Assembly: GCA_963675595.2 (NCBI GenBank) | Contig: CAXXLZ010000001.1 | Span: 1,056,001-1,120,000 of the forward strand | DNA length: 64,000 nt | Direction: 5' to 3' | DNA from: Thermodesulfobacteriota bacterium | Lineage (GTDB): Bacteria > Desulfobacterota > Desulfarculia > JACQYL01 | Part shown: in pieces, positions 36,185 through 50,493 of the stretch | Layout: each line of letters begins with the position of its first letter | Numbering within the stretch: the first letter of the stretch is position 1 | Position numbers and translations under genes: made by a program | Notes under the pieces: model-generated | What the model saw: only the letters and a program-made list of their open reading frames with translations | The model's database searches: none | Told to the model about the DNA's origin: nothing

Positions 36185-39100
36185 TTAAGGTAACCCATTG
36201 ATCTCCCGTTTGATTCGCTCCACAAGGATCCGAGCATTCATTTTTTCGGCCAGGGATAGGGACTTGTTCAGATCATTCATGGCGAGCTTGGGACGGCTTG
36301 CCTTCAACACTTTACCTCGTACGTGGAGCGCCATTGCCTCATGCTTCTTTGCACCCATTTTCTTGGCCGAACGAAAGGCTTTTCCGGCAAGAGAAAGAGC
36401 CTTTTCCCTTTCTCCCGTCTTTCGGCGGAGCTCGGCCAGAACAATGAAAAGTCTGGTTTTGTATCGCCATAGGGTATAAGCGATACGTTGTCGGCTGACC
36501 TCCTCCCGGGACTGCCGAAGGATCTTTTCGGCGTCATCCAGCCTGTCCATTTGAATCATGTTCTCGCCGATATTGATTCGGGCGTTGTTGATGGTTTCCG
36601 GGTCTCCGGTCGGCAGGGCTTCCTCCAGGGATTGTCTATTGAATTCCAGCGCCGTCTCAACGTCCCCCTTCTCCGCGAGAACCCACCCTAGTGTGTTCAA
36701 AAGTCTCGGCCGCCAGAACGGATCGCCTCCCGCTTCCAGATGACCCAACCCGGCCCTTAGGGTCTTTTCCGCCTCTTCCAACCGACCCAAAGCGCCGAGG
36801 ATAAGCCCCTGTCTGAAATGAAGCATGACCTCGAAATAGGCGCTGTTCAGCTTCCGGTTGAGTCTGGCGAGCTCCTTGCTGAAGGCGAGAGCTTCGTCGA
36901 AGTCGCCGGTCCAGTTATAGTATTGTATGAGAGAGGCCAGACTCCATGCCCTCCCTTCCGGATCTTTGACCTCATCGGCGAGATCCAGGGTCTCGATAAG
37001 AAGCGGTTTGGCCTTCTTCAGTCTCCCCAGGACGGAGTAAAGTTGTCCGAGGAAGCTGCTTGCCTTCTGATGAATCTCTGAGATGCCCAGGGCTTTGCTT
37101 TGCTCTACGGCTTTGATCAGATAATGCTCGGAGGATCGAGGCCGATGGCTATAAAAGGCGACCCAGCCCAGCCGGAACAGGGCCTCCAGTTCCACCTCGC
37201 GATTTTCCTGTTTTTTGGCCAGCGAAAGCATCTTCTGAAAAGCGAGACGGCTTTTCTCCATTTCCCTCACACAGAAGTGCATGCTGCCGATCCATTTGTA
37301 GAGCAGCATCCCCTCTTTGCCCGTCTGGTCCAAATTTCCTTTTTTCAGGATATCCAATGCCAAGTTGAAGCAGGTCAGCGCCTCCCGACATGAAAAGGAT
37401 TGCCTCGCTCGGTGGCCGGCATCCAAGGTATAGGATAAGGCCTTGGGCCACTGTTCGGCGTGATAGTAATGAAAGGACAAGAAACCCAACTGATTATGAA
37501 GGTTGTCGTGATGGAGTTCTTCAACAGTCTCAGCCACGATACGGTGATAGGTCTTGCGGGACCTATGGAGCAGGCTGTGGTAGGTGACTTGCTGCATCAT
37601 CTGATGCCGGAACGCGTACCGATTTCCCGAATCGGGAGATATTCGATCAATAATTCCCTCGTCCTCGAGAACGGCCAGCCCGTGTTTCATGTTTGCTTCA
37701 TCTTCAACGAGACGTTTCAGAACATCATGGGAGAAGACGCTGCCGATAACGGACGCCAACCGGCAGACCCGTTTTGCCGCCTCGGGAAGGGAATCCAGCC
37801 GGGCGGCCAGCACATCACGAATCGTCTCAGGAATCGCCATATCCTCCAATTCGAGTCGCAGACGGCATTGTTGATCATCGCAGACGACCATTCTTTGCCG
37901 GTTAAGATGCGTTCCCATCTCCACTAAGAAAAGTGGGTTACCTCCCGCACTGGAAATGATCTTCTCCGATGTTGAGGGTTTGAGACGATCCGCCCCAAGG
38001 GCGGCGTTGAATATCTTCAGGGCGTCCTCCGCCCGAAACGGAGCGGGACGAATCACCGAATCAGGCTCGATGGGGCACCAGCGAGTAGATGTCGTCCTCC
38101 CGGAAAGGATTATCAACAGGGGGCCCTGTTGCGTTGATTGATGCAAAAAACCGAAGAATTCCTTTGTTGTTGCATCTACCCACTGCATGTCATCCACCGC
38201 CATGACGATGGGCCTGATGGACATGCATGACCAAAGGAGATCCCGGATTGCCAAAAAAATATCGCGCTTCTCTCCTTCCCTGATCAGTTCGGAACGATCT
38301 TCCTCAGCCCGGATTCGACCAAAAAGAGAAAGGATTCGTTCGAGTTTCGGGAGGAGTTCTTTATCTCTGATCTTCTCTCGGATTCTGCTTCTGATCTCTC
38401 CCAATCCGTCTCTATCCGAAAATTGAAAATAGTGCTTGAACATCTGAGAAAACGGATGAAAAGCCGCAGCTTCGCCATAAGGCTGACAACGACCGGCCAA
38501 GTAGAATACGCTTTCGTGGTCGAGCGAACTTCTGAACTGCTCCAGAAGTCTCGTTTTTCCAATACCCGCCTCTCCTTCCAGGGCTATCACACAAAGCGAG
38601 CCCTTCTGAACCGAATGAAACGCCTTGTCAAGAAGCGCCATCTCCGTCTGCCGGTTGATGAAAGGAATCGGTATCGTTGATGGTTTTACTCGGGAATCGA
38701 TCTCTCTTTTTTCACTCAAAAGGGAAAAGGCCGCTACGATGTTTTCTTTGCCTTTGACCTCGAAGTCCCCAATCTTTCGAAACCGAAAGAATGGTTGGGC
38801 CGCATCTCTGATGGTTTGCGAAACCCATATTTTTCCAGGGGTGGCGATGGATTCCAAGCGCGCCGCCAAGTTGGTCGTGTCTCCCAACGCCGTGTAATCA
38901 AGACGCAAATTGTCTCCGATGGAAGCAACAACCACCGACCCTGTGTTAATCCCAATGCGCATCTTAAAAGAAATGCCGTAGAGTTTGCTCATCTCAGATT
39001 CATATTCTCGCAGGCGGGCTTGAATTCTGAGAGCAACATGGCAGGCGCGTCTGGTGTGATCTTCGTAGGCGATGGGGGCGCCGAAGAGAGCCATAACCCC

Positions 39101-39517
39101 ATCCCCCGTGTATTGATTAATTGTGCCGCCGGCGCCGTGAATCTCTTCACCCAGAATCTCAAAGCAGCCTTCCATGAGGGAATGGACATCTTCGGGGTCA
39201 AGTGCTTCTGCGATGGAGGTGAAATTGGCGACATCGGCAAACAGCACGGTTACGTGTTTCCTTTCGCCTTCCAGAGGACTGTGCCCTTTAAGGACTTTTT
39301 CCACCAGGAATGGAGGGGTGTAGTCAGAGGACGTACGTTTGGCGTAGGTGGGGATATCCGTTCCTTGGTTCAGCGAGCTTCCGCATTGACCACAGAACTT
39401 GAAGTCCAAGGGATTAGCGGCACCACATTTCGGACACTGCAGAGCCAGAGAAGCACCACAACGCCGACAAAATCTCGTGCCTTCCGGATTATTGGATCGG
39501 CAGCTAGGGCATTTCAT
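36185..39517 (-). CDS. Class III adenylate/guanylate cyclase with double zinc ribbon, AAA/STAND-type ATPase and TPR repeats
   Basis: Four CxxC pairs, TVLFADV..FT, GDGVMALFGAP, RIGINTG, GDTTNLAARL, Walker A GEAGIGKT, DDMQW, GNPLF and C-terminal helical repeats. Confidence 0.92.
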   Translation of the reverse strand: MKCPSCRSNNPEGTRFCRRCGASLALQCPKCGAANPLDFKFCGQCGSSLNQGTDIPTYAKRTSSDYTPPFLVEKVLKGHSPLEGERKHVTVLFADVANFTSIAEALDPEDVHSLMEGCFEILGEEIHGAGGTINQYTGDGVMALFGAPIAYEDHTRRACHVALRIQARLREYESEMSKLYGISFKMRIGINTGSVVVASIGDNLRLDYTALGDTTNLAARLESIATPGKIWVSQTIRDAAQPFFRFRKIGDFEVKGKENIVAAFSLLSEKREIDSRVKPSTIPIPFINRQTEMALLDKAFHSVQKGSLCVIALEGEAGIGKTRLLEQFRSSLDHESVFYLAGRCQPYGEAAAFHPFSQMFKHYFQFSDRDGLGEIRSRIREKIRDKELLPKLERILSLFGRIRAEEDRSELIREGEKRDIFLAIRDLLWSCMSIRPIVMAVDDMQWVDATTKEFFGFLHQSTQQGPLLIILSGRTTSTRWCPIEPDSVIRPAPFRAEDALKIFNAALGADRLKPSTSEKIISSAGGNPLFLVEMGTHLNRQRMVVCDDQQCRLRLELEDMAIPETIRDVLAARLDSLPEAAKRVCRLASVIGSVFSHDVLKRLVEDEANMKHGLAVLEDEGIIDRISPDSGNRYAFRHQMMQQVTYHSLLHRSRKTYHRIVAETVEELHHDNLHNQLGFLSFHYYHAEQWPKALSYTLDAGHRARQSFSCREALTCFNLALDILKKGNLDQTGKEGMLLYKWIGSMHFCVREMEKSRLAFQKMLSLAKKQENREVELEALFRLGWVAFYSHRPRSSEHYLIKAVEQSKALGISEIHQKASSFLGQLYSVLGRLKKAKPLLIETLDLADEVKDPEGRAWSLASLIQYYNWTGDFDEALAFSKELARLNRKLNSAYFEVMLHFRQGLILGALGRLEEAEKTLRAGLGHLEAGGDPFWRPRLLNTLGWVLAEKGDVETALEFNRQSLEEALPTGDPETINNARINIGENMIQMDRLDDAEKILRQSREEVSRQRIAYTLWRYKTRLFIVLAELRRKTGEREKALSLAGKAFRSAKKMGAKKHEAMALHVRGKVLKASRPKLAMNDLNKSLSLAEKMNARILVERIKREINGLP

Positions 39518-43914: not shown

Positions 43915-44130
43915 CCGTTTGGGGGCAATAAGTCCGCGCAGTAACAGGGTATGCATTCACGGAGGGAACTTTTTTCAAACGGTTTCCTCGCCTACCCTGT
44001 GAACAATCACGTAACAGGAGCTTGGGCTTCCTTGCGCTTGGCGGCGCCGGGATATTGATTCTCCGGAAACGAATCTCCCCGTACGGATGTCAAGCCCCCA
44101 GTTTTTGGTCCAGGAGTTATGAGAGTTTTA

Positions 44131-45042
44131 TCATGACTCGCGGTTTTCCATCCCCGGCCCTTGGGGCCTCGGCGAAGCCGAGCTGAGCGAGGCGGAGTCG
44201 AGGCCCCAAGGGCTCGCCGCGAACTGGGCCGGGGTCATGTAATTCAATGCACTGTGCGGTCTTTCCTCGTTATAGGCTTTCCGCCATTTGGCGGCCAGAG
44301 TCTGCGCTTCCTTGATGTTGTTGAAAATTTCCATGTTCAAGAATTCATCCCGAAAACGGCTGTTGAAACTTTCCACGTACCCGTTCTGCCAAGGGGCTCC
44401 CGGCTCGACGAAAAGGGTTCCCACTCCCAGGTCTTTCAGCCAGTTTCTCACCTTTTGGGCTATAAATTCGGGACCGTTATCCGATCGAATGCCCGTTGGA
44501 ACTCCCCGCTCGCCCATCAATCGGCTCAGCTCGTTCAAAACGTCTTCACCCGTAATGGAGCGGTTGATCCTCAGGGCCAGGTTTTCCCGAGTAAACTCGT
44601 CGACAATGGCCAAGCACTTGAACTGACGGCCGTCGACCAAGCGGTCATGAATGAAATCCAACGTCCAGACATCATTTGCAAAAGCCGCCTTACGCTTGTT
44701 GCACGCATTGGCATCAACTCCCAGGAAGCGTTTCTTCTTGGCTTTTCGAGGTACCTTGAATCCTTCCTCTTTCCAAAGTCTATGAATTCGCTTGTAGTTT
44801 ACCGCCCACCCCGCATCACGCAGCAGCCGAGTGATCCTACGGCATCCAAAACGGGGATGTTCTCCAACCAACCGGTGAAGAGCCTTGATCAGTTCCACCT
44901 CATCGTCCCGTTCCTTCGGCTCATAACGTTGGGTGGATCGGTGTTGACCGGCTACGCGGCAGGCCCGACGCTCTGAAGCGGCATGTTCACTTCGAACATA
45001 ATCAACCGCTTTCCTACGACGCGCCGGGCTTAGAAGTTTCCC
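44131..45042 (-). CDS. IS3 transposase OrfB (DDE integrase core), reached by a -1 frameshift
   Basis: WTLDF, DEFTRE, SDNGPEF, PWQNGYVESFN and RPHSAL. The -1 frame is open from the G-GGA-AAC slippery site at 45042-45036. Confidence 0.92.
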   Translation of the reverse strand, partial: GKLLSPARRRKAVDYVRSEHAASERRACRVAGQHRSTQRYEPKERDDEVELIKALHRLVGEHPRFGCRRITRLLRDAGWAVNYKRIHRLWKEEGFKVPRKAKKKRFLGVDANACNKRKAAFANDVWTLDFIHDRLVDGRQFKCLAIVDEFTRENLALRINRSITGEDVLNELSRLMGERGVPTGIRSDNGPEFIAQKVRNWLKDLGVGTLFVEPGAPWQNGYVESFNSRFRDEFLNMEIFNNIKEAQTLAAKWRKAYNEERPHSALNYMTPAQFAASPWGLDSASLSSASPRPQGPGMENRES

Positions 45043-45311
45043 TCCGCAAGATCCTTCAGCATTGCCTTGTCCAACATCAGATCGGCGACCAGCTTTTTTA
45101 AGCGTGCATTTTCCTTTTCCAGTTCTTTTAGCCGTTTGGCCTCCTCAGCCTTCATCCCCCCATACTGGTTTCGCCACCGGTGGTACGTCGCCTCGCTCAC
45201 CTCCAGCGATTGGCAAACCTGCGCTATCGTCTGCCCTGCCGTCAGACGACGGTCCGCGTCTTCAAGTTTCCGGATGATTTGCTCCGCGCTGTGTCTCTTT
45301 CTCTTGGCCAT
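45030..45311 (-). CDS. IS3 transposase OrfA
   Basis: HTH sequence KRHSAEQIIRKL...VSEATYHRWR and leucine zipper LKELEKENARLKKL. Confidence 0.93.
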   Translation of the reverse strand: MAKRKRHSAEQIIRKLEDADRRLTAGQTIAQVCQSLEVSEATYHRWRNQYGGMKAEEAKRLKELEKENARLKKLVADLMLDKAMLKDLAEGNF

Positions 45312-45605
45312 GCAAAAAGTCTCCTTCCGTTCTTTGGGCATTCAGACTCTCATTATACATGGACCAATTATCGGGGGGCATTCCACGGAGACTAATGTTT
45401 AACAAAGACTTCCTAGGTGCATGTTTTGATCATTAAATAAAAACCTTTCATCCCGTTCTACGCCTGGAGCAGGGTTAAGATGGTCATAAACGGCCTTTAG
45501 CAATGGCTGACTTACTACTCCGGCGAATACATGGGTATTTGTCCTACTTTCAAGTTGGTCCGACGACTTAGCAGCAAAACTACTTTAATTTAAATGGATG
45601 ATGAC

Positions 45606-47027
45606 ATGAGACGAGCATACTTAGTTTTGATACTTGTTTGTGTATGGTCTTTGTCAATATGTATAACCTATGCCGGTACTAAAAAGTCTGTTCATAAATC
45701 TGAAGATCCACACAGATCGATGAAAGGCCCCTATCCGGATGGAGTATCCGTCACAAAGGCCTGTCTACAATGTCACGAGGACAAGGCAAAGGAGATACTA
45801 ACGACATCTCATTGGCTTTGGAAAGGACCAAGTCCCAAGGTAGTAGGCCATGAACATAGGATGGATTTGGGAAAGCGGAATATCATAAACAGCTATTGAA
45901 TTGGTATCGGATCCAACTGGTGCAGTTGCACCAGCTGCCATATAGGATACGGTTGGAAGGACGCTTCTTTTGACTTCTCCGACACCTCAAAGATCGATTG
46001 TCTGATTTGCCACGACACGACGGGAAACTATCAGAAAGCACCCAAGGGTTGCGGTAAGGAGAAGGAATGGTTGAACCTGCCCGAGATCGCAAGGAATGTG
46101 GGCATCCCTTCAAGGGCCAATTGCGGAAAGTGCCATTTCTATGGGGGGGGAGGGGATGCTATCAAGCACGGAGCACTTGATTCCACCTTTGAGCAACCGG
46201 ACAGAAAAACTGATGTTCACATGGGAGGGATGGACTTTTCCTGTCAGTATTGCCACCTGGAGAATGGACACAGGATAGCCGGCGGCTGCACAACCTGTGC
46301 AGTGAGTGAAGGCACGGTTTCCTGCTTGGACTGCCACGATGAAAGGCCCCATTATGACGAAAATCCCCTGCTGGCGAAATTAAACGACCACGTCGATTCC
46401 ATCAGCTGTCAGACCTGTCATATCCCGACTTTTGCAAAGAACAAACCAACCCTCATGTGCTGGGACTGGTCAAAGGCGGGGAAAGAAATGGAACCATGCC
46501 CGGTGGATCCACATGCGATTACGATTTGCTCCAAAAAGAAAGGCCTTTTGATAAAGAAGCAAAATCTTACTCCGGTCTATTCCTGGTACAACGGAAAACA
46601 TCATCGATATTTAGCCGGCGATAAGGTAAATCTCAATGGCACTACCTATTTAAACAAGCCGGATGGAAACATTCGGGATCCGAATTCCAAAATAACACCC
46701 TACAAAATATATGAAGGTATTCAACCTGCCGACGACCAATTTGGATATCTCATTGTCCCTAAATTGTGGGGTGGTTTCTGGCGCCATTTTGATTGGAACC
46801 GGGCTGCGGAGGAGGGAATGAATTCGGTGAATCTCAAATATAGCGGCAAGATCAGATTCGTGAAGACGATCATGCATTGGGCAATCAACCATGGAGTGGC
46901 GCCGAAAGAACAAGCGCTGTCGTGTACCGATTGTCACCGTCCGGACGGTGTCATGGACTTCAAGGCCTTGGGCTATAAACGAGACCCGGTGGTTATCGGA
47001 GGGCGGTTTAAGAATGCGCGGCCATAA
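45606..47027 (+). CDS. Octaheme c-type cytochrome of the tetrathionate reductase (OTR) family, with an in-frame TGA probably read as selenocysteine
   Basis: One frame with a single internal stop (TGA 45897-45899). Signal peptide and eight CxxCH motifs (CLQCH, CTSCH, CLICH, CGKCH, CQYCH, CLDCH, CQTCH, CTDCH). OTR motifs HWLW, GGGGDAIKHG, DVHM, WDWSKAG and INHGVAPKE.AL.C. 473 codons from ATG 45606. Confidence 0.88.
45900..45934 (+). promoter_or_regulatory. Putative bacterial SECIS element
   Basis: Perfect 7-bp stem CTGGTGC-AGTT-GCACCAG starting 17 nt after the TGA, with G in the apical loop. Confidence 0.65.
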
Positions 47028-47205
47028 CATCATATCTACCAACCTAACCCGGTTTAACGCCTATGAAAAAAAGAGGCTTGAGAGTCATTTATCCAACAGC
47101 CCTAAAGAGTTAGCTGGAATCAAACAATTGCTCAAGTGACGGCCTGCTTGGAGGGCAAACGGTTTGCGACTTGAAACTAATGTAACGAAGATGGAGGCGA
47201 CAGGA

Positions 47206-48138
47206 ATGGTCGGCTCGAACGATCGGGACAGAAGGGCCACGCTTGAGCGAACGCCCCTTTTCGCGGGGCTGAATCCGGAGCAGCTCTCCGAATTTGCCCG
47301 GGTGGCGCACGAAACCAGTGCGCCGGCGGGGTCCATGATCTTCGAGCAGGGAGACGCGGGTGACGGCTTCTATATTATTAGGTCGGGAAAGGTCCAGGTC
47401 TTCAGAAGAGGGGAGCGAGGCATTGAGACCCAGCTTTCCATCCTGGGTCCGAGGGAGAGCTTTGGTGAGATGGCCCTTCTGACGGGCAACTCCCGTTCCG
47501 CTTGTGTTCGGGCCATGGAAGAGACTCATTTGATTGTGCTGTCCAAGAATGAGTTCGATCGCATACTGAAGGATCATCCCGATGCGTCGTTGTCTTTTGT
47601 AAAACAAATTTCCGAGTGGCTTCTTCGCGATGAGGCCCATTTACAGCAAGCGACGGAACGTATCATGCATCCCTCCCGGATTTCGTGGTCGGACTTCGCC
47701 TTCATCGCGGGTGTCGTCCTTCTCTGCGGTCTCATCTTCAACACAGCTAACCCCTCCGGAATTCGATGGATTCCCAAAGTCTACTCCCATGAATCCATAT
47801 CCTTCGTCGCCGCCGCTGAGGCAATAGCGGCTCGGGCTGAGGGAGCCGTGATCGTGGACGCCCGTCCCTCGAACTTCTACGAAGAAAGGCATATAGAGGG
47901 TGCGATCAGTCTTCCGCTTCCGGTGTTCGACTTCGTCTACATGATGAAATTCGGTGAAATGCGCAAAAACAAGCCCATCATTGTCTATGGACGAAACATC
48001 AGCCGTCGTTATGATTCAGAGGTCGCCTACCGTCTGGTGCTGAGAGGTCACCGGGATGTATCAATCTTAGAGAATGGTGTTTTCGCTTGGGAAAAGCAGG
48101 AGGACGCCATGGAAGCACAGGAGAATTCCGAGTCATGA
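47206..48138 (+). CDS. Cyclic-nucleotide-binding domain + TM + rhodanese-like domain fusion
   Basis: cNMP motifs FEQGD.GD.FYII.SG.V and FGEMALL...RSA. TM helix, then IVDARP...HIEGAISLP and ILENGVFAW. GGAGG SD before ATG 47206. Confidence 0.87.
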   Translation: MVGSNDRDRRATLERTPLFAGLNPEQLSEFARVAHETSAPAGSMIFEQGDAGDGFYIIRSGKVQVFRRGERGIETQLSILGPRESFGEMALLTGNSRSACVRAMEETHLIVLSKNEFDRILKDHPDASLSFVKQISEWLLRDEAHLQQATERIMHPSRISWSDFAFIAGVVLLCGLIFNTANPSGIRWIPKVYSHESISFVAAAEAIAARAEGAVIVDARPSNFYEERHIEGAISLPLPVFDFVYMMKFGEMRKNKPIIVYGRNISRRYDSEVAYRLVLRGHRDVSILENGVFAWEKQEDAMEAQENSES

Positions 48139-48647
48139 AACGTCTCATGGACCTACTGAAACGTCTTGTAGCCAGTCCACACTTGGCCTTGGTGCTCCGG
48201 CTTTACATCGGTGTGGTCTTCGTTTACGCCAGCATGAGCAAGATTCCCCACCCGGCGGAATTTGCCGAAAATCTGATCGCATACAGGCTCTTCCCGTGGT
48301 GGTCCATCAACATCCTAGCCGTATTCGTGCCGTGGCTCGAGTTGATCTGCGGGCTTTTCCTCGTAATCGGGTTGGCCTCCAGGGCGGCGTCTTTCACCAT
48401 TGGCGCCATGCTTCTTGGATTCACCGTGGCCATTGTGATCAATCTGCTACGGGGTTCCAACATCGGTTGCGGATGCTTTGAAGCCGTTGGTGGACAAATC
48501 GGATGGGGGAAAGTGATCCGGGATTTGACTTGGCTGGTGATGACGCTCCAAGTATTCTTCTTTGATCGGATCCTGTTGCTTCGAAGGGGTGGGTTGAGCC
48601 TGAAACCCAGCTCGATGATCGAGGCCTGGGAGGGGGATCGGGTGTGA
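48135..48647 (+). CDS. DoxX/MauE-family membrane protein
   Basis: LRLYIG.VF.YA..KI..P..F, PWLELICG and CGCF. ATGA overlap with the upstream gene. Confidence 0.9.
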   Translation: MKRLMDLLKRLVASPHLALVLRLYIGVVFVYASMSKIPHPAEFAENLIAYRLFPWWSINILAVFVPWLELICGLFLVIGLASRAASFTIGAMLLGFTVAIVINLLRGSNIGCGCFEAVGGQIGWGKVIRDLTWLVMTLQVFFFDRILLLRRGGLSLKPSSMIEAWEGDRV

Positions 48648-49383: not shown

Positions 49384-49914
49384 TCCGCCGTACAGCCGGC
49401 GAAGTGATGGGGCCGGGCCGGAACCATCGCCGCCGATCGGTTTTTCCAAGCGAATCTTCCGTGCACGGTATGAACGGAAGCGCCGCCGTGCGGCACGGAA
49501 CATGACCAGCAACGTCCCAATGGAGGCGGTTCCGCGGGAAACGACGCCGGATGCCGCTCCAAGAGCGCATATCCCATTTCGACTTTGCATCATCATTCGA
49601 TTTCCGCAGTATCACGCGGGTCCTTAGGGACCGTCTCTGTGTCGTTCGTCCGATGATTACTTCGATAATAAGGGGTGTTATGGATAATAATTAAAGCATA
49701 TCCTATGTGAATATCTTCATGCCGGCAGCGTTGCTCGATTGAAGAGAAACGCATTCTTCTTGCGGGCTATGGGTAGAGTTATTAAAATAAAGGTATTAAC
49801 CCGGATATCGTCCGGGGAGGAATTGTCTGGGAGGGGATGATGGAATTCGTCCTTTCACACGGGACATGTAGTTTATCTTACCGAAATTCCGACACGAATT
49901 TCAAAGAGGGCGGG

Positions 49915-50493
49915 ATGCTTCAGCACGGAAGGGGAGGCAAAGTCAAGGCCTTGACTTTCATGGCTCTTGTGTTCCTCCTTTTATTCTCTTCTTCCAACTC
50001 GGCGTGGAGCCAGACGGTGGAGTTCGACGCCGCCAGAGTGATTCTGCCGCAGGTCGGGGAGACTTTCAACGTTCAGGTAATGATCGAGGATGTCACGAAC
50101 CTTGGCGGGTTCCAAGTTACGTTGGATTACGATCCAACTGTGGTTCAGATATTGGGAACTCCCAGTTCATCGGTTACGTTGGGAAGTTTCATTGGAAGTA
50201 CGGGCAGGACCGTGACCAAGGTGGGCGGGACTCCGGACAACACCGCGGGGACCGTGGCAGTGGGCGCGTTTACGACCGGATCGCAGGCGGGGCCAAGTAC
50301 GCCGTCCGGGACTCCCGAAAATTTGGTGACGATCATTTTCACCGTGCAGTCGCGAGTTGTGAGTGAATTGCTGCTTCACGACATTCGAGTAACGGATACG
50401 TCCGGTGTTCCTTTTCCCGATCCTTCCGATCAAACCGGCAGACTGATTCGCCCTCTGCCCATGGGCATCTTCGCCGTCATCCTCGACGACTAG
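49915..50493 (+). CDS. Secreted cohesin-like domain protein
   Basis: Signal peptide (...SSNSAWS) followed by GETFNVQVMI...NLGGFQVTLDYDPTVV. Start codon uncertain. Confidence 0.7.
   Translation: MLQHGRGGKVKALTFMALVFLLLFSSSNSAWSQTVEFDAARVILPQVGETFNVQVMIEDVTNLGGFQVTLDYDPTVVQILGTPSSSVTLGSFIGSTGRTVTKVGGTPDNTAGTVAVGAFTTGSQAGPSTPSGTPENLVTIIFTVQSRVVSELLLHDIRVTDTSGVPFPDPSDQTGRLIRPLPMGIFAVILDD

Follow-up and report, generated by a model that had tools for sequence, protein, structure and literature searches.

A probable selenocysteine form of an octaheme tetrathionate-reductase-family cytochrome in a Thermodesulfobacteriota bacterium

The described protein nearest to the subject of this study is the octaheme tetrathionate reductase (OTR) of Shewanella oneidensis (SO4144, structure 1SP3). 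It reportedly reduces tetrathionate, nitrite and hydroxylamine. According to a published account, its haem 2 is bound by the motif C74xxC77H78 and ligated by Lys56 (PMC3769277). A selenocysteine (Sec) form of the family is already on record. In Table 1 of a 2026 selenoproteome review, TIGR04315 is listed as a 'GenBank annotated' selenoprotein family with one Sec per protein and WP_331457571.1 as its representative. The entry gives no Sec motif, no description of a selenocysteine insertion sequence (SECIS) and no function (PMC13188914). A different haem selenoprotein, MccSep/ExtKL of Geobacter sulfurreducens (NF040886), is a pentahaem Sec polysulfide reductase found mainly in Desulfobacterota. 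Its description places Sec325 in a C-terminal Ig-like domain beside the Cys-ligated haem 2, where it is essential and is proposed to act as a nucleophile on the substrate (PMC13510729). MccSep showed no tetrathionate activity. Here, a gene of the OTR family with a single in-frame UGA is analysed. It lies at positions 45606–47027 (+ strand) of a 64,000-nucleotide stretch, called the window throughout, from a Thermodesulfobacteriota bacterium (assembly GCA_963675595.2, contig CAXXLZ010000001.1, positions 1,056,001 to 1,120,000). Judged from its sequence and that of its relatives, it very probably encodes, as a single intact gene, an exported octaheme OTR (TIGR04315) with selenocysteine at UGA98.

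Under translation table 11, the gene falls apart into two open reading frames (ORFs), 45594–45899 (101 aa) and 46071–47027 (318 aa), which share one frame. Translation of 45606–47027 met one stop only, the TGA at 45897–45899 (+), which is residue 98 (U98) of a protein of 473 residues. All of the eight CxxCH motifs were found in the read-through protein (CLQCH, CTSCH, CLICH, CGKCH, CQYCH, CLDCH, CQTCH, and CTDCH). An initial annotation of the window had described two ORFs of one frame split by a single TGA, with all eight motifs and no other lesion, and had predicted that standard pipelines would split the gene; the translation and the table 11 result agree with each of these statements. The read-through protein scored 510.1 bits against TIGR04315 in the NCBIfam protein search (cut-off 375) and 506.8 bits, with one TGA, in the genome-level search. 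Its Pfam match was Cytochrome_cB. The match to 1SP3 had an E-value of 4e-132 and covered residues 34–462, and this identity is enough to settle the fold of the protein. In this alignment, with the chain positions counted by hand, Lys90 (codon 45873–45875, +) fell on Lys56, the ligand of catalytic haem 2, and the TGA eight codons further on fell on Cys64. The 2004 paper on the OTR structure reportedly places Cys64 in the active site and assigns it a catalytic role. The earlier placement of the TGA eight codons past the haem-ligating Lys, at the active-site Cys column, was thereby reproduced. The Lys column was invariant in 112 of the 112 aligned homologues. The TGA column was occupied by Cys or TGA in every one of them, and by Cys in every Cys-type homologue. 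On the evidence of these columns, the arrangement of Lys and TGA is far beyond chance.

Relatives with TGA at the same column were collected with a degenerate DNA pattern (N-x-[FY]-TGA-27 nt-CT[ST]CH) scanned over genome contigs. The pattern matched at least 114 stretches. Among the matches listed, 109 lie in an OTR gene and put the TGA at the column, whereas five are chance matches; the Sec-OTR genes found among them are nearly all from Desulfobacterota. The closest full-length proteins among the matches listed are 66% (L118), 62% (L136), 61% (L083), 60% (L078), and 58% (L149) identical to the window protein, and TGA stands at the U98 column in all five. The initial annotation had proposed a tblastn check of this column and had taken a TGA unique to the assembly as a sign of a nonsense mutation. 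The check gave Cys or TGA throughout, and with TGA in 5 of the 5 nearest relatives and in 109 of the 114 pattern matches listed, the TGA is not unique to the assembly. A related-locus search with the single protein gave three loci, none of them close. In a FastTree phylogeny of 82 rows, the window protein stood in a fully supported five-row clade composed of Sec forms; L149 had been left out of the tree, as its identity to another row exceeds 85%. The gene is placed by these data in a clade of stand-alone OTRs of about 470 residues, all with UGA at the active-site Cys column. At least four to five changes between Sec and Cys are required by the tree, and the share of Sec rows on it carries no meaning because these rows were gathered by a TGA-specific pattern.

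The distribution of the TGA was also determined by counts over genomes. In an even sample of the phylum (201 genomes, each at least 90% complete), 34 matches exceeded the TIGR04315 cut-off, and 15 of these, nearly half, had one in-frame TGA, counted anywhere in the frame. The taxonomic class of the window gave 36 OTR matches in 95 genomes, with TGA in two only, the window gene and a gene of G040. The TGA of the latter is at the same column but in a different clade. Two OTR paralogues in the window's own genome carry Cys at the column. Sec-OTRs are not new: selenium forms are common in sulfur-cycling bacteria and have already been catalogued. The novelty that the initial annotation attached to such a protein was therefore overstated, given the GenBank annotation, the listing in the 2026 review (PMC13188914), and the 15 TGA-bearing genes of the phylum sample. 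No biochemistry of a Sec-form OTR was found in the literature searched. At one further locus (L099), the pattern match is a Sec-type OTR and the best full-length tblastn match has no stop, so that the locus may hold Sec and Cys paralogues.

Bacterial SECIS elements are stem-loops situated shortly 3' of the UGA with a G in the apical loop, and distance, loop and SelB binding serve as the criteria for them. In the window, the perfect hairpin CTGGTGC-AGTT-GCACCAG at 45917–45934 (+) begins after a gap of 17 nt from the TGA, exactly where the initial annotation had put it. The RNA has a 7-bp stem, CUGGUGC/GCACCAG, and the loop AGUU, and the hairpin is the centroid structure of the RNA fold. The codons for Cys-Thr-Ser in haem motif 2 supply its 3' arm. 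Among the matches listed (loci L047–L160), two hairpin types were found at the same distance 3' of the TGA in this one protein family. The NWC type, to which the window belongs, is represented there by 31 sequences; it is characterised by the stem just given and has the loop AGGU in 30 of them. The NEAR type is represented by 78 sequences among the matches listed, with the stem GCAACGA/UCGUUGC and the loop GGC, and is nucleotide-identical in nearly all of them; one compensatory double change (L096) and one loop variant (L087) were seen. Its stem is formed by pairing of Ser-Asn-Glu codons with Arg-Cys codons, in place of the Cys-Thr-Ser codons used by the NWC type. Metagenome contigs from other samples (X7 and X8) match only positions 45912–45977 of the window. 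Their loose ends resemble further variants of Sec-OTR, with a TGA that follows NNF and the NEAR-type hairpin among their features, and such genes seem to be common there.

The conservation of the NWC-type hairpin was followed codon by codon in 29 distinct sequences. From Asn104 to Ser110, all seven codons were fixed or had changed in a wobble-preserving manner only (AAC 29/29, TGG 29/29, TGC 29/29, Arg AGG 28/29, and ACC 28/29). The two codons just past the hairpin vary freely (TGT 17/TGC 12 and CAT 15/CAC 14). In the Cys-type sequences, the Arg codon is CGN in 26 of 26 and AGG in 0 of 26. RNAalifold on the 29 sequences gave seven pairs with 0 of 203 cells broken and five one-sided changes, all of them to G-U. 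The freezing of synonymous sites reveals selection on the RNA, in the Sec forms only. The conserved downstream hairpin that the initial annotation had suggested looking for in homologues is thus found at the nucleotide level, and it is confined to Sec forms. The 5' arm dictates the residues Asn-Trp-Cys, in a place that is taken by Asn-[Trp/Glu]-Pro in the Cys-type homologues.

The whole genome (6.79 Mb in three contigs) was searched for the selenocysteine machinery, a check that had been left to be made. The profile searches identified selB (404 bits), selA (621 bits), and selD (386 bits), and a tRNA-Sec was found with 77 bits and the anticodon tca. The full set, selA, selB, selC, and selD, is therefore present. 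selD carries an in-frame TGA of its own, and three Fdh-type genes carry one TGA each. Comparable hairpins were found 3' of the TGA of selD and of two fdh genes, but not of the third. Sec is used in multiple genes of this genome. These four TGA-bearing genes, selD and the three of fdh type, lie at G000:C2:3335545-3336462, C2:18237-20237, C2:3228677-3230683, and C2:4120581-4121342. TGA is also the commonest stop, ending 1373 of the 2524 stop-to-stop frames of at least 400 codons. TGA therefore serves as a regular stop codon here, with no reassignment of the code. The OTR hairpin shares with SECIS elements of the fdhF type that it is an in-coding stem-loop shortly 3' of the UGA with a G in the first loop positions. 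In contrast, its stem is made of haem-binding-motif codons. Compared with the selD and fdh hairpins of the same genome, its loop also stands at a distance from the UGA that is greater by about 5 nt.

Two further sets of contigs cover the gene or part of it. Those designated X1, which possibly come from the source sample, cover 45359–47100 without any difference. Those designated X3, which come from another study and bear another organism label, cover 45760–46103 with one difference, at 45840. They have the same TGA, AGT codon and hairpin as the window, and Ala190 is also present in them. The TGA, which the initial annotation had wanted confirmed, is not an assembly error, as it stands in both sets of contigs. 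The X3 contigs also bear on the start of the gene. An alternative start, ATG 45594 (+), lies four codons 5' of ATG 45606. Compared with positions 45592–45596 of the window, the X3 contigs have one extra nucleotide right in front of ATG 45594, and three extra ones, GAT, were seen inside ATGGATGATGAC. That indels near ATG 45594 are tolerated fits ATG 45606 as the true start. From ATG 45606, the translation begins, as read by eye, with a hydrophobic segment that has an RR pair and a TYA site, and the N-termini of orthologues are similarly hydrophobic. A signal peptide of the Sec export pathway, MRRAYLVLILVCVWSLSICITYA, is therefore predicted as probable at 45606–45674 (+), with cleavage after TYA.

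If UGA98 is decoded in this way, SelB and Sec-tRNA would bind the hairpin and Sec would be inserted at the UGA. The mature periplasmic enzyme would then hold a selenolate within the pocket around the Lys-ligated haem 2, at the place of Cys64 in the Shewanella OTR. Nucleophilic attack by this selenolate may break S-S (or Se-O) bonds in tetrathionate, polysulfide or selenite-like compounds, giving an Se-S adduct, which would then be reduced via the eight-haem chain. Such Sec chemistry would have a parallel in the unrelated pentahaem MccSep, for which it has been demonstrated.

An IS3-family insertion sequence (IS) of 1298 bp occupies 44088–45385 (−), with orfA at 45030–45341 and orfB at 44131–44898; its transpos_IS3 score is 208 bits (cut-off 160). 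About 25 copies at 98.6–100% identity are spread over all three contigs, which points to an element that may be actively expanding in the genome. A few further fragments and three copies at about 87% were also observed. Between the IS and the OTR gene, at 45387–45593 (+), only the 3' end of a gene for a solute-binding protein (SBP) of the SBP_bac_5 family is left, decayed to a stub with four in-frame stops in 69 codons. The stub gave a local alignment score of 51, compared with 21 ± 4 for shuffles, of which 0 of 500 reached 51; the other two frames scored 18–27, and the SBP orthologues score 250–358 among themselves. Among the matches listed, an SBP_bac_5 gene of 558–624 codons stands on the same strand directly upstream of the OTR gene in 5 of the 5 nearest orthologous loci; in the window, the IS occupies this place. 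The SBP_bac_5 protein of the orthologous loci reached no specific NCBIfam family over its cut-off. SBP_bac_5 and Sec-OTR are a conserved gene pair, and no description of it was found. Elsewhere in the window's genome, no orthologous SBP was found, only paralogues at 21–28% identity. To the left of 45385, one X3 contig continues in letters other than those of the IS, which suggests that the site is free of the IS there and that the insertion in the window is strain-specific and recent. A promoter and terminator consensus scan of 45300–47250 gave fewer matches than shuffles.

The central claim of the initial annotation, a Sec-containing OTR, is strongly favoured by the Sec machinery of the genome, the TGA of the relatives and the hairpin conservation restricted to Sec forms. 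Several observations nevertheless weigh against it. A 64-nt segment folded no better than its shuffles, of which 38 in 200 reached an equally good fold (z –0.82), and the hairpin alone therefore proves little. No compensatory double changes were found in the NWC-type stem of the 29 sequences, so that its structural support consists of frozen synonymous sites and wobble changes. The AGUU loop of the window is the sole loop exception among the 31 NWC-type sequences listed. The change from AGGU to AGUU and the replacement R107S are one and the same base change, and the Arg is kept in 108 of the 112 homologues. Among the 18 differences listed for X3 in the ORF, nine are synonymous and nine non-synonymous, which indicates mild constraint, on few sites. 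A search of sequencing runs for this DNA yielded none of RNA. The SBP_bac_5 partner has been reduced to a stub here and is replaced nowhere in the genome. Finally, no sigma-70-like site was detected by a simple consensus scan of the + strand from the IS to the start codon.

Some of these points can be read in another way, namely that the gene, although a selenoprotein gene by descent, has become silent or impaired here, having lost its operon partner and probably also the promoter, with an active IS beside it and both the loop and the Arg hit by one mutation. An IS3 copy identical to others directly adjoins the partner stub, the partner is absent from the genome, no promoter-like site was seen upstream on the + strand, and besides the exceptional AGUU loop and Ser107 a second conserved residue is changed (D190A). 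However, the frame stays open over the 375 codons that follow the TGA, and 80 of the 82 columns of at least 97% conservation are kept. The protein deviates at two such columns, R107S and D190A, and it is no outlier, as seven other rows deviate equally often. The intact 473-codon frame beside a stub with four stops in 69 codons argues for ongoing selection on the OTR after the loss of its partner, and hence for decoding of the TGA. The AGT codon and Ala190 occur in the contigs of a second organism as well and are therefore not fresh lesions, the AGUU loop still contains a GU step, and the IS insertion looks strain-specific and recent. Silencing of the gene is accordingly regarded as unlikely. 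The worry of the initial annotation about IS-driven silencing was partly justified by the IS3 copy and the decayed partner directly upstream. That a Cys-type OTR gene has instead acquired the TGA by nonsense mutation or through faulty assembly, and is a pseudogene, is highly improbable. The table 11 split into ORFs of 101 aa and 318 aa in a locus disturbed by an IS would fit a pseudogene. On the other hand, all five nearest relatives and the 109 pattern matches listed share the TGA of this column and possess conserved hairpins, the TGA occurs in the contigs of two studies, no other lesion is found in the 375 codons downstream, and the second ORF alone would lack a signal peptide and be unable to receive haem. 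The idea that UGA98 is read through as Cys or Trp by a near-cognate tRNA, or under a reassigned code, deserves hardly any credence. It too would result in a full-length protein, but nothing specific speaks for it. TGA is the commonest stop of the genome, the Sec machinery is complete and the hairpin of SECIS type is conserved.

The initial annotation had proposed the Cys of WCSC and the Cys residues of GGCTTC as partners in a selenenyl sulfide. The former, Cys106 (codon 45921–45923, +), is the extra Cys of the NWC motif. It is conserved, yet the same codon also contributes to the SECIS. The latter are poorly kept, with Cys at residue 231 in 2 of 112 and at residue 228 in 16 of 112 homologues, and are therefore poor candidates for a catalytic partner. 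The initial annotation overlooked that Cys106 strictly co-occurs with Cys149 of the GCG motif (codon 46050–46052, +). In the 112-row alignment, the two are found together in 23 of 23 rows, all of them Sec forms, and Cys149 in 0 of the 89 others. Since the Cys106 codon lies within the 5' arm of the hairpin, the conservation of Cys106 is explained in part by the stem. The NWC type, marked by Cys106 and Cys149, appears on the tree in two clades with two changes. With two clades only, there are at most two independent contrasts for the Cys pair, and a statistical test is impossible. Cys106 and Cys149 may be joined by a disulfide or, alternatively, take part with Sec98 in a relay. The NEAR subtype has Sec without Cys106 or Cys149, so that the cysteines are no general requirement.

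A tentative and on balance rather unlikely proposal is that the NWC-subtype Sec-OTRs could be a distinct catalytic subclass, in which Sec98 and the pair Cys106/Cys149 would form a selenol-thiol relay, with formation and resolution of a selenenyl sulfide, over the Lys-ligated haem. If this were true, the SECIS stem and the active site would have co-evolved on shared codons, with Cys106 being both half of an RNA stem and part of the chemistry. The two hairpins at one position would then be the trace of Sec having been gained twice, or else of the SECIS having been remodelled. The natural variant of the window, AGGU to AGUU and Arg to Ser, would be a ready probe of the RNA and protein roles.

Comparison with the described systems shows what the window copy shares and where it departs. 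With the Shewanella OTR, it has in common the family, the eight CxxCH motifs, the Lys ligand of haem 2, and the sequence GK...NNF[C/U] before haem motif 2. It differs by Sec for Cys64, Ser for Arg before haem motif 2, D190A, and the additional Cys106 and Cys149. With the Sec-TIGR04315 members of the review, it shares the family and the kind of recoding, as judged from the listing (PMC13188914), and it is set apart from them by its variant loop and its lost partner gene. MccSep, a periplasmic multihaem cytochrome c with one Sec by a specially ligated catalytic haem 2, resembles the window protein as predicted here. However, MccSep has five haems and a Cys-ligated haem 2, and the window protein has eight haems and a Lys ligand. 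Membership in the MccSep family was rejected, as the read-through protein matched only TIGR04315 in NCBIfam at E-values up to 0.01. Nor was any match to NF040886 above the cut-off found in the genome, the best one having 20.2 bits against a cut-off of 250.

Pipelines without a model of Sec would mis-split such a gene or call it a pseudogene, and the correct reading would add one periplasmic respiratory enzyme for sulfur or selenium compounds to the organism. After the MccSep work of 2026, Sec-OTR is an obvious target for the question of why haem enzymes acting on chalcogens recruit selenium. The gain from this window is modest, namely one more member with a variant loop and the locus history of a decayed partner and an IS. 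Beyond the catalogue entry stand the two SECIS hairpins built on haem-motif codons, the pairing of Cys106 with Cys149, and the variant loop, lost partner and neighbouring IS of this copy.

Downstream of the OTR gene, a gene with cyclic-nucleotide-binding and rhodanese domains lies at 47164–48138 (+) and is not conserved as a neighbour in the orthologous loci. A gene for a membrane protein of the MauE/DoxX type follows at 48087–48647 (+). By tblastn, none of the window's neighbour proteins (the rhodanese protein, the MauE/DoxX-type protein and others) was found beside the orthologues, bar a weak match to the cyclic-nucleotide-binding domain in L108. On the other side of the OTR gene, a protein with zinc-ribbon, adenylate/guanylate cyclase, AAA_16 and TPR domains is encoded at 36185–39517 (−). 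The same architecture is found directly downstream of the orthologue in L078 (4979–8000), and a TPR fragment flanks the orthologue in L118 (7231–7932). The presence of a cyclase-type protein and a rhodanese protein with a cyclic-nucleotide-binding domain hints at a possible control of the locus by cyclic nucleotides. Among further ORFs downstream that are otherwise unassigned, one with a cohesin domain (Pfam E-value 1e-10) was observed at 49837–50493.

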